Positions 39,576 to 44,893 of a stretch of DNA of 64,000 nucleotides are shown one piece after another; positions within the stretch are counted from its first letter, which is position 1, and each line of letters starts with the position of its first letter. The DNA is taken from the NCBI GenBank assembly GCA_048940445.1, contig JBHLON010000015.1, positions 9,837-73,836 on the forward strand. The letters are read 5' to 3'. The DNA is from Promethearchaeota archaeon (GTDB lineage: Archaea > Asgardarchaeota > Lokiarchaeia > Sigyniarchaeales > SOKP01). A program made the position numbers and the translations under genes. Below the pieces are notes generated by a model. It searched no databases. It was not told where the DNA came from and saw only the letters and a list, made by a program, of their open reading frames with translations.

Positions 39576-40100
39576 TTAATGAAGAATCATTTTTTCTTTA
39601 ATTTCTTGGACTAATTTCATTCCTTCTTTATTAACTTGTGCAAAAATATCCCTTAGAATCTCATTGAGTTCAAGATTTTTTAATTCACATGATATAAATA
39701 GGAGTGAAATCAATTGTTTAGCGAATAATTCAATATTTTTAGTATCATCAAGAGGTATTCTTATTCCTAATGCTTTTATATCCATATGAGTCTCTTTGTC
39801 TTGTTGACGAATTACTACAAAAACGTCATTTTTACGACCTTTCCATTCTTCAGTAATAGCTCTAATAGATAATACATATCTTTTAGAAGGACTACCGATT
39901 CCTATTACATCTTTGGTAAAGCTAAGTGGCTGTGAGTTTCTAATCGAACTTAAGCCAAATGATCTATTAATTAAATTCGCTTTATCTAGCTTATTTTTCA
40001 ATTTTGTGACTTCTTCTGTAAGCTGTTCTACTTTTAACGAGAGTTTTTCAAATTTTTCTAAAAATAATTCTTTATCTATAAGATTATCCGTATTACTCAT
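39576..40100 (-). CDS. Hypothetical protein: coiled coil plus possible PC4-like domain
   Basis: Heptads FEKLSLKVEQLTEEVTKLKNKL; VFVVIRQ...KALGIRIPL. Confidence 0.6.
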   Translation of the reverse strand: MSNTDNLIDKELFLEKFEKLSLKVEQLTEEVTKLKNKLDKANLINRSFGLSSIRNSQPLSFTKDVIGIGSPSKRYVLSIRAITEEWKGRKNDVFVVIRQQDKETHMDIKALGIRIPLDDTKNIELFAKQLISLLFISCELKNLELNEILRDIFAQVNKEGMKLVQEIKEKMILH

Positions 40101-40258: not shown

Positions 40259-41518
40259 TCAATTGGTCCACTCATTTTCACTTTCTTCGTCATAATCTGT
40301 AATGGTAAACTTTTTTTCTGATAATTCAGCATAGTGTTCCATTTCTTGTTTATAACTTAGAGTGTTTCTAATTTCTTCATCGATTTTAGTCATAAATTTC
40401 TTTTCATTAGAATAATACTTTTTAATTTCATATAATCCCAGAATTACTAAAATAGCCACGAAAAAGACTATGACATAAATGTTTCGCAACACATTTATAA
40501 TAGCATCATTTAAAAATGCCATAGATTGAATGTAAGGTAAAACTTGTAACCATTCATAAGGAAAATAATGGATAAATTCATAAGTTACTTTTGAAAGCAC
40601 CAACCATATTAAAATAGTATCAAGCCCGAATCGTTTCATTTTCAATTTTTTGCTTAATAATTCGGCTTGGGAACCCATTAATGTACTAATTGAATAAAGA
40701 ATAATGAACACATCGAAAAATATCATAACAATTTGAGTAATAATGGGTGAACTCCCTCCAGATCCCATACTATTAACAGCTATAAATAATTTTACCACAA
40801 AATAATATGTATAAATAACAACTAATATAGAAAATATCCCAATCCATGCATTGAGAATCTTTCTAGATAAGAAGAGCAGACTTAATAATGCAAAGCCAAT
40901 GATCGCTATTCCAACAACTATAAATAATACTCTAACACCTAAATTCAAGCCAGGATAAAACGAGAGTTCAGGAATAAATGTATAAATTATATCGAGAATA
41001 CCTAAGGCAGGAACGAGAAAAATAACCAATAGAAACAAAGATAATAATATTCCCCCAGAAAATGTTAAGCTACGAGTAATTTTTCGATGATTATGCCTCT
41101 TCAATCTATTGTCTACATTTTTAGCTATTAAATAGGCCCCATAAAGTATAAACCAAGATGAGAAAAAGAAGTAACTGAAGATAGAAAAAGCAAATAAAGC
41201 AATTAAAATAACCCCTATTAATGACATTAGAGGCAAGGTAACAATAAAAATTAAAATTACTTTCCATGAGGGAATCTCTTTTATATCTTTTTTATAAAAT
41301 ATAGATAATAAATATAAGAACATCAGAAAAGTTAAGAACGGTAAAAATAGAACGACTCCAATAATATCCCATAAATCTACTTGGAATGGCCCAATTTGGA
41401 TGGTTATTTGAAGAGGAATTTGGATGAGAATAATGTCAATTAAAAGCCAGATGACTAGAATTAAATACTTTCTATTTTCTTTTAGACCTAACTTTCTTAA
41501 GTTTTCAATAAACTCCAT
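40259..41518 (-). CDS. Multi-pass membrane protein
   Basis: About 10 hydrophobic segments; acidic C-terminal tail. Confidence 0.8.
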   Translation of the reverse strand: MEFIENLRKLGLKENRKYLILVIWLLIDIILIQIPLQITIQIGPFQVDLWDIIGVVLFLPFLTFLMFLYLLSIFYKKDIKEIPSWKVILIFIVTLPLMSLIGVILIALFAFSIFSYFFFSSWFILYGAYLIAKNVDNRLKRHNHRKITRSLTFSGGILLSLFLLVIFLVPALGILDIIYTFIPELSFYPGLNLGVRVLFIVVGIAIIGFALLSLLFLSRKILNAWIGIFSILVVIYTYYFVVKLFIAVNSMGSGGSSPIITQIVMIFFDVFIILYSISTLMGSQAELLSKKLKMKRFGLDTILIWLVLSKVTYEFIHYFPYEWLQVLPYIQSMAFLNDAIINVLRNIYVIVFFVAILVILGLYEIKKYYSNEKKFMTKIDEEIRNTLSYKQEMEHYAELSEKKFTITDYDEESENEWTN

Positions 41519-43157: not shown

Positions 43158-43370
43158 ATTAACTTAAAAAGATTAATTTGTTTAGGATTATTTAATATTC
43201 TATCTAAAGTTAACAATATAGAATGAGTTAAAATAAATTACTTTTATAAATAATTAATTTTATGTAAAATATATATTAAGAAGTGAAAATTAAAAAGAAT
43301 AAGAGCTTAAGTATTTTTTAATTCAAGACTTTTGATAATAATAAAAATTTAGTTCTATTATGATAAAAGG

Positions 43371-44048
43371 GTGACCCTATTGGATGATCAAATTGATTGG
43401 ACTAAAGCTGAAGAAAATCCTGAAAAGAGTCAAAAGGTTGATGGAAGGACTCTATTAGATCTTAGAGCCAAAGTAAATCAGTTAGAGCATGATTTATCTT
43501 CTAATAAAGAAGAATTGCGAAAAACAAAGGAAGAATTGAAAGAAACTCAAAAAAAGTTGTCTGGGAGAGAGAAAAGTTTAGTTAAAGTAACAGAAAAATT
43601 TTCTTCTGCTAAAAAGAATTTAGATGATATGGCTGAACAAAAGTTAAATGTTGACATTGAAGTTACAAAATTAAGACCAAAGACTGTAGAATTAGAAAAA
43701 AAGCTCTCAGAAGCTGAAGTTAAAATAACCCAACAAGAACAAGAACTAGAATTTTCTTCAGAAAAAATGACTGAATTGGAACAGAATGTTAGTTCTAAAG
43801 AAAAAACAATTGAGAATCATAAAGAAGATTTAAAGAATAAGAATATTGAAATAAACAGTCTCAAGGAACAATTGACTAGTAGCCAAAAAGAAAGGAAGGA
43901 ATTAATTGAAAAAGTCAAAAATCTTGAAAAAAAATTATCTGAAGTTAATTCTGCATCAAATATTCTTGAAAAAGTCCGAGAAACTATGGTCCATAAGGGT
44001 TTTCTTTCAGACAAAGAACTTGAAGAAATATTAAACGAGTTTGAATAG
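43371..44048 (+). CDS. Long coiled-coil protein (paralog A)
   Basis: Continuous heptads; head IDW...PEKS.KV.GR.LLDLR and tail HKGFLSDKE; probable start TTG 43380. Confidence 0.85.
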   Translation: MTLLDDQIDWTKAEENPEKSQKVDGRTLLDLRAKVNQLEHDLSSNKEELRKTKEELKETQKKLSGREKSLVKVTEKFSSAKKNLDDMAEQKLNVDIEVTKLRPKTVELEKKLSEAEVKITQQEQELEFSSEKMTELEQNVSSKEKTIENHKEDLKNKNIEINSLKEQLTSSQKERKELIEKVKNLEKKLSEVNSASNILEKVRETMVHKGFLSDKELEEILNEFE

Positions 44049-44170
44049 AATGAAATTTTTTAGGGTTAATAGTAAATGTAAAAACTACTTGAAAAAATAT
44101 ATATATGATATTGTAAACTTAATAATATAAATTAAAGTAAAATAATCACAAACAAATCAAAAAATAGTAG

Positions 44171-44893
44171 GTGTTAAGAAGATTGGCGATAGACTGGGAT
44201 CGTATATCAGAAAAGCCTGAAAAATCATATAAGGTTGAAGGGCGATTTTTGTTAGACCTTAGAACGAAAATTAACGATTTAGAACAACAAGTAAAAATGA
44301 AAACAGATAAACTAGATAGAACAATGAATGAATTAAATGAATCTAAGGAGAAGTTAGGTGGAAGAGAAAAAAGTTTAACTGAAAAAACAGAAGAATTGTC
44401 AGCAAATAAAAAGGATTTGGAAAACATCAAGGAAGATAAAGGAAAGATTGATAAAGAACTTGTGGCTCTTAAATCTAGTTATTCTGAGTTAGAAAAGAAG
44501 TTATCTGAGTTGGAGCCATTAAAAGAATTAGAACCAAAAATGAAGAATTTGCAAGAAGACATGGAACAAAGAGAAAGGGAGCTTGAAAGCGTGAAAAAGG
44601 ATTTACAACAAACAATATCAGATAAATATGTTGAGATTGAGAGTCTTAAAAGCGATTTAAATAAAGTGATTCAAGAAAAGGAGGAAGAGATCATAAAAGC
44701 AAAAAATGATGTATTATCAAAAGAAAAAGAGATAGAAGCTCTAGACTTAAAAATTAAATCTCTTGAAGATTACATCGCTGAGGCAAAGGGAGCACCACAA
44801 GTTATTGAAGAGATTAAGGAGCTTATGGCTCATAAAGGCTTTCTTTCTGATAAAGAGTTTGATGAAATTTTAGAAAAGAATTTAACCAAATAA
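44171..44893 (+). CDS. Long coiled-coil protein (paralog B)
   Basis: Same head, GREKSL and tail motifs as paralog A; probable start TTG 44183. Confidence 0.85.
   Translation: MLRRLAIDWDRISEKPEKSYKVEGRFLLDLRTKINDLEQQVKMKTDKLDRTMNELNESKEKLGGREKSLTEKTEELSANKKDLENIKEDKGKIDKELVALKSSYSELEKKLSELEPLKELEPKMKNLQEDMEQRERELESVKKDLQQTISDKYVEIESLKSDLNKVIQEKEEEIIKAKNDVLSKEKEIEALDLKIKSLEDYIAEAKGAPQVIEEIKELMAHKGFLSDKEFDEILEKNLTK

Follow-up and report, generated by a model that had tools for sequence, protein, structure and literature searches.

Two adjacent genes for similar coiled-coil proteins in the genome of a Promethearchaeota archaeon raise the question of what such rods are for, and in particular whether they build a filament, as had been proposed in a sequence-only reading of the window (the whole stretch of 64,000 nucleotides analysed here, from contig JBHLON010000015.1 of assembly GCA_048940445.1). 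The two neighbouring open reading frames lie on the plus strand and each encodes a head-rod-KGF-tail coiled-coil protein: gene A at 43371-44048 (225 aa from GTG 43371) and gene B at 44171-44893 (240 aa from GTG 44171), with an AT-rich spacer of 122 bp between them (44049-44170) that has a T-run right behind the A stop and TATA-like stretches. It is likely that both start further downstream, A at TTG 43380-43382 (222 aa, MDDQIDW...) and B at TTG 44183-44185 (236 aa, MAIDW...). Each of these probable TTG codons stands 5-9 nt past a GGTG(A) motif, a ribosome-binding-like GGTGA at 43370-43374 for A (43370-43382 together with the start) and GGTG at 44170-44173 for B (44170-44185 together with the start), and they are in keeping with a head that normally begins at about residue 3 in this family (3-6 in members).

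A and B are 44% identical over 232 columns (BLASTP with composition adjustment, E 9e-46), a likeness that, on the alignment, is far above chance and above generic coiled-coil similarity, and their description as adjacent paralogues sharing a head and a tail has held up. The common head reads IDW..P.K..KVEG..LLDLR.K.N.LE and the common tail AP..IE.IKE.M.HKGFLSDKEF, and both motifs are kept family-wide (alignments A1, A2, A3 and A4). The head profile (A2) matches A at 43392-43517 (IDWTKAEENPEKSQKVDGRTLLDLRAKVNQLE..., HMM match 5.8e-23) and B at 44189-44314 (IDWDRISEKPEKSYKVEGRFLLDLRTKINDLE..., 9.8e-23), and the tail profile (A3) matches A at 43920-44045 (...ILEKVRETMVHKGFLSDKELEEILNEFE, 4.2e-20) and B at 44765-44890 (...AKGAPQVIEEIKELMAHKGFLSDKEFDEILEKNLTK, 5e-22), the latter folding as a helix-turn-helix cap in AF2. 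The internal GREKSL that had been noticed at the same register is indeed present in A (residues 61-80, 43551-43610) and in B (residues 60-79, 44348-44407, ...GGREKSLTEKTEELSANKK...), but it is a mark of the A orthogroup rather than a family motif: it is conserved in A orthologues of both genera (g1 and g12) and, among B proteins, is confined to those of this genome and of its closest relative. With a third-codon identity between A and B of 0.73 versus a background of 0.3-0.47, the tract is a short, local gene conversion in which A was the donor and B the recipient.

Neither protein is claimed by a curated family, all Pfam and NCBIfam matches being below cutoffs, and excised heads and tails gave sub-threshold coiled-coil noise alone in both libraries, so that the match to a known non-filament family by which the filament idea could have fallen was not among the results. 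The protein atlas returned generic coiled-coil clusters only, and a precomputed label, PF24161 (CCDC39), was set aside as generic. Some JGI homologue records carry the name "chromosome segregation ATPase", and weak NCBIfam matches to SMC/Rad50 coiled-coil arms go in the same direction; yet the TIGR02168 score is 35.7 bits against a cutoff of 567, and proteins of only 222-240 aa that have no Walker A motif, ATPase head or hinge are almost certainly not SMC/Rad50-like. We regard that label as a coiled-coil artefact, and the lack of any catalytic domain refutes it. As had been stated from the start, A and B have no ATPase and no transmembrane segment: neither has a Walker A/P-loop motif, a cysteine or a transmembrane segment, and their 19-residue hydropathy peaks are about 0.

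The head is what places the two proteins in a wider family. Its pattern, I-[DNE]-W-x(6)-P-x(7)-G-xx-L-L-D-x-[RK]-x-K-x(4)-E, begins within the first ~6 residues and is present in both A and B; about 190 clusters among 1.84 billion representatives match the head profile, genuine matches always cover the extreme N-terminus only (residues ~2-6 to 47), and every one of 40 close homologues comes from Asgard sources. It was found in 159 of 161 genomes and in all 30 genera of Lokiarchaeia; when only genomes at least 80% complete are counted, it is present in 138/138 inside the class and in 4/194 outside, the latter being marginal (E 0.004-0.009). From these counts we consider the head universal in and specific to Lokiarchaeia. 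We define here the "IDW-head" rod family, in which this head is followed directly by a long heptad rod; as judged from their profile matches, A and B are members of this previously undescribed family. Searches with the head and tail motifs, which the earlier reading had suggested, thus recovered a narrow family whose head is class-wide and whose KGF tail is confined to the window's own taxonomic family (f1).

At least four unrelated tails stand behind this one head, namely the KGFLSDKEF cap, the Loki Zn domain, an RDYDFFKK tail, and a Zn-ribbon plus gelsolin-fold domain. Since the head is coupled to so many unrelated tails, the tail is unlikely to be its partner, and recognition between head and tail cannot account for the conservation of the head. 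The cap pattern in A and B, ...AP..IE.IKE.M.HKGF[LI][ST]D[KR]E[FL]..[LI][LI], is strongly conserved with an invariant K-G-F..D.E; it was found in 123/134 genomes of f1, in 0/14 of a second family (f3) and in about none elsewhere, and by this distribution the KGF-capped form is an innovation of f1. The possibility that it is a truncated pre-Zn linker ("GGFS.EERI" versus "KGFLSDKEF") was ruled out, as hhalign gives the Zn and KGF tails a probability of 0.4% of being related. By eye the KGF tail has the short C-terminal helix-Gly-[hydrophobic]-[ST]-x-x-E-[FY] helix-capping pattern of SHOCT (PF09851), but SHOCT has no match to the excised A and B tails at E<=10 and in a genome-wide scan matches other loci only. 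The start of the tail also has what we take to be a resemblance to the villin headpiece "LSDEDF"; the tails have no such Pfam match at E<=10, and we regard this as a common helix-capping pattern. A protein joining a receiver domain to a KGF tail (P0040) was excluded from the evidence as a possible assembly chimera: it lies on a lone 1249-bp contig, its receiver domain covers only profile positions 1-92 of 111, its tail is nearly identical to that of P0023, and the tail-bearing frames listed for the 161 genomes include no fusion of this kind.

The Zn tail is one that the family shares with gelsolins. A "Zn domain" has been reported on Loki2DGel, MKD1-2DGel and "unrelated multi-domain proteins" (Akil et al. 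2022, PMC9433394), where the head and rod family is not described. The sister clade of A and B, the head-rod-Zn proteins (e.g., the 285-aa paralogue of this genome on contig C100), ends in that domain, which here has two CxxC pairs and an extended loop with a conserved Tyr, is strictly C-terminal and is Loki-restricted; the tail also has its match on the two-domain gelsolin (340 aa) encoded in the same genome. In contrast, A and B have neither cysteine nor Zn domain and carry the unrelated KGFLSDKEF cap instead, and the C-terminal (CxxC)2 with its extended Tyr-tipped loop that the third paralogue (L003:1312-2166, minus strand) bears is missing from both. With the Zn paralogue as query, a PDB sequence search gave no significant match; its likeness to the COG1579/HP0958/CT398 structures (4ilo, 5y05), which combine a coiled-coil hairpin with a Zn ribbon, is weak (E 0.84-0.94), and A and B have no Zn ribbon. 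A gelsolin fold is found in the Helarchaeota-labelled head-rod-Zn-ribbon-gelsolin proteins, whose AF2 C-terminal domain matches 7c2f_B, the Thor ProGel bound to actin (E 1.5e-6, TM 0.78 by target, rmsd 1.5 A), and has 48 structural matches at E<=1e-3, gelsolin-family throughout among the matches listed. In one order the rod joins the head to a gelsolin domain and in all others to the gelsolin-associated Zn domain. The Thorarchaeota 1DGelX, a gelsolin domain with a predicted coiled-coil "domain X" whose role is unknown (PMC7444086), has the same two ingredients as these Helarchaeota-labelled proteins; in the latter the gelsolin domain is terminal, whereas A and B have none.

What lies between head and tail is a long rod. 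It is alpha-helical, with ~200 residues that would span some 30 nm as a complete coiled coil; a ~40-residue head precedes it at the N-terminus, and a short helix-turn-helix cap (KGFLSDKEF) ends the protein. In a heptad scan the register of A is nearly unbroken from about residue 46 to 201, and that of B shifts several times, with prolines in mid-rod; both proteins are acidic. The AF2 model of B (pLDDT 89.7) is an extended kinked rod consisting of a short helix (9-14), a loop, and two long helices at 24-113 and 115-222, both with pLDDT above 90, closed by the turn G223-F-L-S (223-226) and a helix at 227-238. Its head is of lower confidence (pLDDT 54-79), as expected of a docking motif, and is modelled as a short helix holding the Trp, then a Pro/Gly loop and the initial turns of the rod. 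Both rod ends are accordingly predicted to be capped by short fold-back helices and not to be open coiled-coil ends. Foldseek gave no matches with this model, and VIA-align only generic long helices (Z<=8), lamin and tropomyosin coil fragments being among the look-alikes. The rod had been described as divergent, which it is, and in addition it varies in length both between A and B and among orthologues, where A rods have 136, 147 or 157 residues and B rods 139-161, with steps of about 3-4, 7, 10-11 and 21 residues; in the wider family the total length ranges from ~176 to ~415 aa.

These properties bear directly on the proposal of an Asgard counterpart to intermediate filaments, to crescentin-type coiled-coil-rich proteins or to tropomyosin, in which heterodimers or mixed homodimers of A and B would assemble together head-to-tail and/or laterally and overlap lengthwise through their conserved ends. 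Conserved ends around a variable middle, long heptad-based rods and the extended model of B are what such a polymer would show, and the head-rod-tail layout is common to A, B, intermediate filaments, crescentin and tropomyosin. The profile matches that might seem to favour it are generic, PF00038 (Filament) scoring 27.5 bits with A and 22 with B against a gathering threshold of 40, PF19220 (Rod_CreS, the crescentin rod) 20 bits with A against 100, and PF00261 (Tropomyosin) 16.2 bits with A against 38.6 and giving no match with B among the best 25 of 43 families (E<=1). An intermediate filament rod is built of coils 1A, 1B and 2 with linkers at a conserved length of ~310 aa, and tropomyosin isoforms are quantised by the actin subunit, in steps of ~39-40 residues; the rods of A and B, at 136-161 residues and variable among orthologues, are neither conserved nor quantised in length in this way, and their ends, predicted to be capped, have no intermediate filament rod-end motifs. 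Moreover, overlap of ends cannot explain why a class-wide head is conserved on Zn, gelsolin and RDYDFFKK tails. We therefore consider the filament proposal unlikely, and the head-to-tail polymer of the earlier reading, in the face of one head on at least four unrelated tails and of a rod without fixed length, is not supported.

The obligate heterodimer proposed along with it fares no better. The A rod differs from the B rod by -10 to +18 residues, and in 13/17 genomes the g-e' interhelical charge pairs are more favourable for A.A and B.B than for A.B, in a test that presumes a parallel in-register dimer and uses a crude assignment of register; as the folded models are monomers, oligomeric state and chain orientation are inferred, and we infer from these pairs that A and B are mainly homodimeric. 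The rod lengths of A and B do co-vary (Spearman 0.48, p 0.049), a correlation to which we give no weight in view of the non-independence of the genomes. Strict tandem retention of two paralogues would, however, also fit a hetero-complex.

That retention is apparent from the phylogeny and the genome counts. In the tree, the A orthologues of genera g1 and g12 group together (support 100/98) and the B proteins form a clade within g1 (100/100), by which topology the tandem duplication to A and B predates the split of the two genera. In g1, about 33 genomes have both genes, 5 have neither and none has A alone, a pattern by which the two are kept or lost as a unit; tandem arrays are kept even where flanking genes differ. 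Retention since before the split and joint loss would be in line with co-assembly into a filament, but absence of the pair from 5/42 genomes of the genus makes it dispensable, which counts against that proposal. Around the pair lie genes for DUF72, two membrane proteins, MgtC/DUF4010, an N6/N4 DNA methylase and a fucose-isomerase-like protein; they are syntenic among closely related genera only, are lost in g11 and g2 and yield no functional clue. Genes for a transmembrane segment plus hexapeptide repeats (c1) were considered as a head-specific partner and rejected: they are a multigene family with members beyond the class too, which makes phyletic co-occurrence with the head uninformative and leaves positional conservation alone standing. 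Beside the head-rod-Zn gene, two membrane proteins with cytoplasmic beta-helix domains are encoded.

In another possible role, A and B would be Zn-less derivatives that have the head and the N-terminal rod in common with the class-wide head-rod-Zn protein and modulate it, by competing for its partner or by forming mixed coiled coils, and so tune the recruitment of Zn-domain cargo. In the tree the Zn and KGF clades (each 100/99) are sisters, the two heads are almost identical, and KGF forms are found only where the Zn form also occurs; A and B are dispensable, with variable copy number and arrays of 3-4 copies in some genera. Strong conservation of the KGF tail nevertheless argues for a positive function of its own beyond loss of the Zn domain, and nothing points to co-regulation; the A/B pair and the Zn gene are on different contigs. 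Such a modulating role is in our opinion improbable.

We give about an even chance to the reading that A and B are length-variable homodimeric rod linkers or tethers of a modular, Lokiarchaeia-specific family and not subunits of a head-to-tail heteropolymer. On this reading the head would dock or assemble with a partner that the whole class has kept, the rod would hold an adjustable distance, and the tail would pick a second partner; A and B would thus be mainly homodimeric linkers or tethers in a system that is probably the Lokiactin cytoskeleton or its anchoring. Cortexillin-type actin cross-linkers and golgin-type tethers are dimeric coiled-coil linkers with terminal docking modules. By analogy, the head-rod family would likewise swap terminal modules between paralogues across a long coiled coil of variable length, although it has no sequence or domain homology to them, its modules are tiny (~40 residues) and the family is limited to one archaeal class.

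The link to actin is proposed because the sister architectures bear actin-regulator modules; A and B themselves have no actin-related module and are linked to actin by association with the paralogous architectures only. The Zn domain of Loki2DGel is reported not to co-sediment with F-actin (PMC9433394), and the paper on Lokiactin co-IP in L. ossiferum (PMC13716822) nowhere has the word "coiled" in its main text. The suggestion of an undescribed Asgard cytoskeletal element survives in part: the Lokiarchaeia family is undescribed and a cytoskeletal link is plausible, its relatives being fused to actin-regulator modules, but the filament reading is unsupported. A more intimate association would have dimers of A and B lie along Lokiactin filaments as tropomyosin does and regulate the access of gelsolin and profilin. 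Acidic, nearly continuous coiled coils of ~30 nm, the tie of the family to actin-regulator modules and the tropomyosin fragments among structural look-alikes (Z ~7, generic) would be consistent with such side-binding; the observed length steps are not those of one actin subunit, the Tropomyosin score stays below its threshold, and the mid-rod prolines and register shifts of B also count against it. We hold side-binding to be very unlikely.

A long shot is that the Lokiactin cytoskeleton has in the head-rod family an organiser specific to Lokiarchaeia. The head would anchor dimeric rods at a fixed site (e.g., the membrane proteins adjoining the ancestral gene), the tails (Zn, gelsolin, KGF) would hold actin regulators or each other ~20-50 nm apart, and in the window's family the A and B caps would associate into a lattice or filament. 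If true, the cultured archaea closest to eukaryotes would possess a cytoskeletal element of a new and non-eukaryotic kind. The A/B pair alone amounts to well-conserved, dispensable, lineage-specific rods with no positive evidence for filaments. Lokiarchaeia include cultured Asgard archaea that are used to study actin-based cell complexity before eukaryotes, and the known regulators of their cytoskeleton are essentially profilins and gelsolins. A head that appears class-universal and class-restricted offers a concrete and testable candidate for the scaffolding layer that is missing from this picture. The head-rod-Zn form is present in three complete f3 genomes, which may include the cultured species; if they do, the protein could be localised or pulled down directly.

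The pair of adjacent, paralogous ORFs put forward by the sequence-only reading is real: gene A (43371-44048, forward strand, 225 aa) and gene B (44171-44893, forward strand, 240 aa) encode coiled-coil proteins sharing 44% identity over 232 columns (E 9e-46, composition-adjusted BLASTP). Their start codons had to be corrected, as the GTG starts listed for both overlap a GGTG(A) motif, with a TTG located 5-9 nt downstream; judging from the GGTG(A) spacing and the position of the head, a module of about 40 N-terminal residues, the likely starts are the TTG codons at 43380 (A) and 44183 (B) of the forward strand. The resulting N-termini, MDDQIDW... and MAIDW..., fit the family, since the head of relatives begins at about residue 3. 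Both proteins have a DEKR content of 42-46% and are devoid of cysteine, Walker A motif and hydrophobic segment (19-residue hydropathy peaks at about 0), in agreement with the absence of ATPase and transmembrane segment claimed for them. The family alignment confirmed a strongly conserved head (IDWxKxExxPxKxxKVEGxxLLDLRxKxNxLE) and a strongly conserved tail (AKGAPQ..E.IKE.M.HKGFLSDKEF..LL, the KGF cap) around a divergent rod with many indels, total lengths ranging from 176 to 288 aa. Pfam and NCBIfam returned for A and B only sub-threshold coiled-coil cross-matches (Filament, 27.5 bits vs a cutoff of 40; Rod_CreS, 20 vs 100; Tropomyosin, 16.2 vs 38.6; SMC, 35.7 vs 567), and the excised heads and tails matched no family. 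A resemblance of the tail to SHOCT, seen by eye, was dismissed because the SHOCT model gives no match to the tail at a cutoff as loose as E<=10. Forty homologues were retrieved from 5.8 billion proteins searched, every named one from Asgard MAGs; the JGI label "chromosome segregation ATPase" carried by homologues is a coiled-coil artefact. Our literature search found no published description of the head or rod family, and the claim of an undescribed Asgard coiled-coil family is supported by these named homologues and sub-threshold scores. Two short coiled-coil ORFs about 2 kb apart on contig C101 of the same genome (L056:1489-1983, reverse strand, 165 aa; L057:1486-1992, reverse strand, 169 aa) combine an "(I)DWPY" N-terminus with a KGF[LI]S..EF-type tail and lack the LLDLR part of the head; judging by sequence, they resemble remote family members.

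Profiles built separately from the head and tail motifs indicate that the head is class-wide and the KGF tail confined almost wholly to the window's own family. The 42-column head profile matches 159 of 161 genomes and all 30 genera of Lokiarchaeia; when completeness of at least 80% is required, the counts are 138/138 genomes in the class vs 4/194 elsewhere in the phylum, the latter being marginal (E 0.004-0.009). The tail profile matches 123 of 134 genomes in f1, the window's own family, vs 0 of 14 in the neighbouring family f3, and outside these two it gave a single marginal match. A third paralogue of the window's own genome (contig C100, L003:1312-2166, 285 aa) combines the same head with a rod and ends in a Cys4 zinc domain reading CPMC...VLSYVGHIPMYAKK.CKKCGYEF, and three complete f3 genomes (single contigs of 4.4, 6.0 and 4.3 Mb) possess such a head-rod-Zn protein (376, 415 and 274 aa) as sole family member. 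Zn-tailed and KGF-tailed proteins form separate clades in the tree (support 100/99 each). Head and tail have different histories and, given the two profile distributions and this two-clade tree, the form common to the whole class is the head-rod-Zn protein, with the KGF-capped proteins an offshoot at the level of the family. A kinship between the KGF and Zn tails was rejected (hhalign probability 0.4%). The Zn tail matches the Loki "Zn domain" of Akil et al. 2022 (PMC9433394). By their account, this domain is restricted to Loki, forms the C-terminus of Loki 2DGel gelsolins and "unrelated multi-domain proteins", and also exists as a free protein; that of Loki2DGel did not bind F-actin. In the window's own genome, the Zn domain caps a 340-aa two-domain gelsolin (L061:721-1740, reverse), a Pro-rich/Gln-rich coiled coil (L048:521-1393, reverse), a 172-aa coiled coil (L049:1501-2016, reverse) and a 427-aa coiled coil (L052:352-1632, forward), and stands as a free 67-aa ORF (L051:1489-1689, reverse); the capped ORFs are otherwise unrelated to one another.

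The diversity of tails carried by the head goes further. The head profile, run exhaustively with HMMER against 1.84 billion representatives, gave 191 matches; genuine ones place the head, without exception, from residues ~2-6 to 47, while a few long repetitive proteins align only to its generic coiled-coil half. Sorting the proteins of at least 150 aa by C-terminus distinguished four tail types: the Zn domain (17), the KGF cap (16), a third recurrent tail, ...RDYDFFKK..ERA.RA (P0089, P0116, P0125, P0135, P0162 and P0166), and a fourth type composed of a Zn-ribbon followed by about 90 residues (...VWIWKG..S.RFE.AEA...EGEEP..FP.). One of the RDYDFFKK-tailed proteins carries the NCBI name "Ca. 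Sigynarchaeum springense", so the head may extend a little outside Lokiarchaeia in the NCBI nomenclature. The fourth tail, with 13 relatives of which two bear the NCBI name "Ca. Helarchaeota", scores below threshold against Pfam Gelsolin (17.1 vs 21 bits) and aligns to the Pfam-positive gelsolin ORFs of the window's own genome (BLASTP against a very small database, best E 6e-8). An AF2 model of a fourth-tail protein (pLDDT 80.9 overall, 85-91 in the ~90-residue domain) matches gelsolin-family structures, with actin-bound Thorarchaeota ProGel ranked first (7c2f_B; E 1.5e-6, target-normalised TM 0.78, rmsd 1.5 A across 84 columns); of its 48 structural matches at E<=1e-3, all those listed are domains of gelsolin, villin, CapG or adseverin. 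Two fusions were each seen once and may be assembly chimeras: P0040 (138 aa, on a 1249-bp ENA contig) joins a receiver domain (profile positions 1-92 of 111) to a KGF tail that barely differs from the one in P0023, and P0056 (182 aa) joins the head and a short rod to a matrixin-like fragment.

The proposal that A and B form a head-to-tail heteropolymer, akin to intermediate filaments or tropomyosin, found no support. In those polymers rod length is constant or comes in multiples of about 39-40 residues, whereas the rods of A (136, 147 or 157 residues from head end to tail start) and B (139-161) are neither, B minus A ranging from -10 to +18. For B, AF2 modelling from a 49-sequence alignment (pLDDT 89.7, pTM 0.43) gave a structure that starts with a short helix (9-14) and a Pro/Gly loop, continues with rod helices 24-113 and 115-222 that break immediately before the mid-rod prolines, and ends with a tight turn (G223-F-L-S) and a cap helix (227-238). 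Its structural matches are generic long helices (Z<=8), which are no evidence of kinship; as they align over about 200 residues, the model predicts a kinked, extended rod about 30 nm long, both ends of which look capped rather than open. The weightiest point is that the head occurs class-wide on proteins with four unrelated tails, so its conservation cannot stem from recognition of the KGF tail. Nor is an obligate heterodimer supported: in a crude scoring of g-e' charge pairs along the ungapped N-terminal rod, A.A and B.B are favoured over A.B in 13/17 genomes (mean difference -2.3). The internal GREKSL is indeed common to A and B at the same register, but it is a motif of A orthologues, found among B proteins only in the window's genome and its closest relative (G262). 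Third-codon identity between A and B peaks there at 0.73, vs 0.3-0.47 elsewhere, head and tail included; the likeness reflects a short gene-conversion tract from A to B (A 43551-43610, B 44348-44407, forward strand) and not a shared functional site.

What is left of the suggested Asgard cytoskeletal filament is a coiled-coil family with a plausible connection to the cytoskeleton. It is tempting to hypothesize, at roughly even chances, that A and B would act as mainly homodimeric rod linkers of variable length, in which the N-terminal head would be a docking module universal to the class and the C-terminal cap would be specific to the family. Leads on a partner of the head come from the neighbours of the head-rod-Zn gene, which adjoins two tandem paralogous membrane-protein genes in 11/11 loci examined in f1 and f3 (in the window's own genome, 279 and 251 aa, contig C100, L088:9530-12198, the same place as L003). 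Their products combine membrane helices at the N-terminus with a hexapeptide-repeat (left-handed beta-helix) domain; the genes lie on the same strand as head-rod-Zn in f3 and divergently in f1, and genome-wide matches of the two families fall within about 2 kb in most f1 genomes compared (about 5 kb in G183). The link is positional only, because genes of this membrane-protein family number at least 8 per genome in f1 and 4 in f3 and are also present outside the class. In 10/12 loci of f1 and f3, a RagA/Gtr1-like GTPase gene (PF04670, 63.5 bits; in the window's own genome L088:15685-16512, forward strand) is found some 5 kb away from head-rod-Zn. According to PMC13716822, Lokiactin co-IP in L. 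ossiferum enriched gelsolins, one profilin and an ARF-type GTPase; the word "coiled" does not occur in its main text.

As to the origin of the pair, genera g1 and g12 share one clade of A orthologues (support 100/98), and each genus has its own clade of B orthologues (100/100 and 99/99), the two being weakly grouped together (81/62); the A/B duplication is therefore older than the split of the two genera. The tandem arrangement and gene order are kept in all g1 and g12 genomes sampled except G188, where the second copy is a 100-aa remnant without head. Among the 42 genomes of g1, about 33 contain both genes, 5 contain neither (completeness 87-99%), 3 show a partial B at the edge of a contig, G269 carries a divergent tandem pair, and none has A alone; arrays of three or four family genes occur in other genera. 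The flanking genes (DUF72, membrane proteins, MgtC/DUF4010, an N6/N4 methylase and a fucose-isomerase-like gene) gave no functional clue, and their synteny is limited to close genera, different genes flanking the family in g11 and g2. Elsewhere in the window, a 174-aa protein with an N-terminal coiled coil (39576-40100, reverse strand) adjoins a 419-aa polytopic membrane protein (40259-41518, reverse strand); neither has a Pfam match, and the two are adjacent in 16-17 of 21 loci of g1, g12 and g5.
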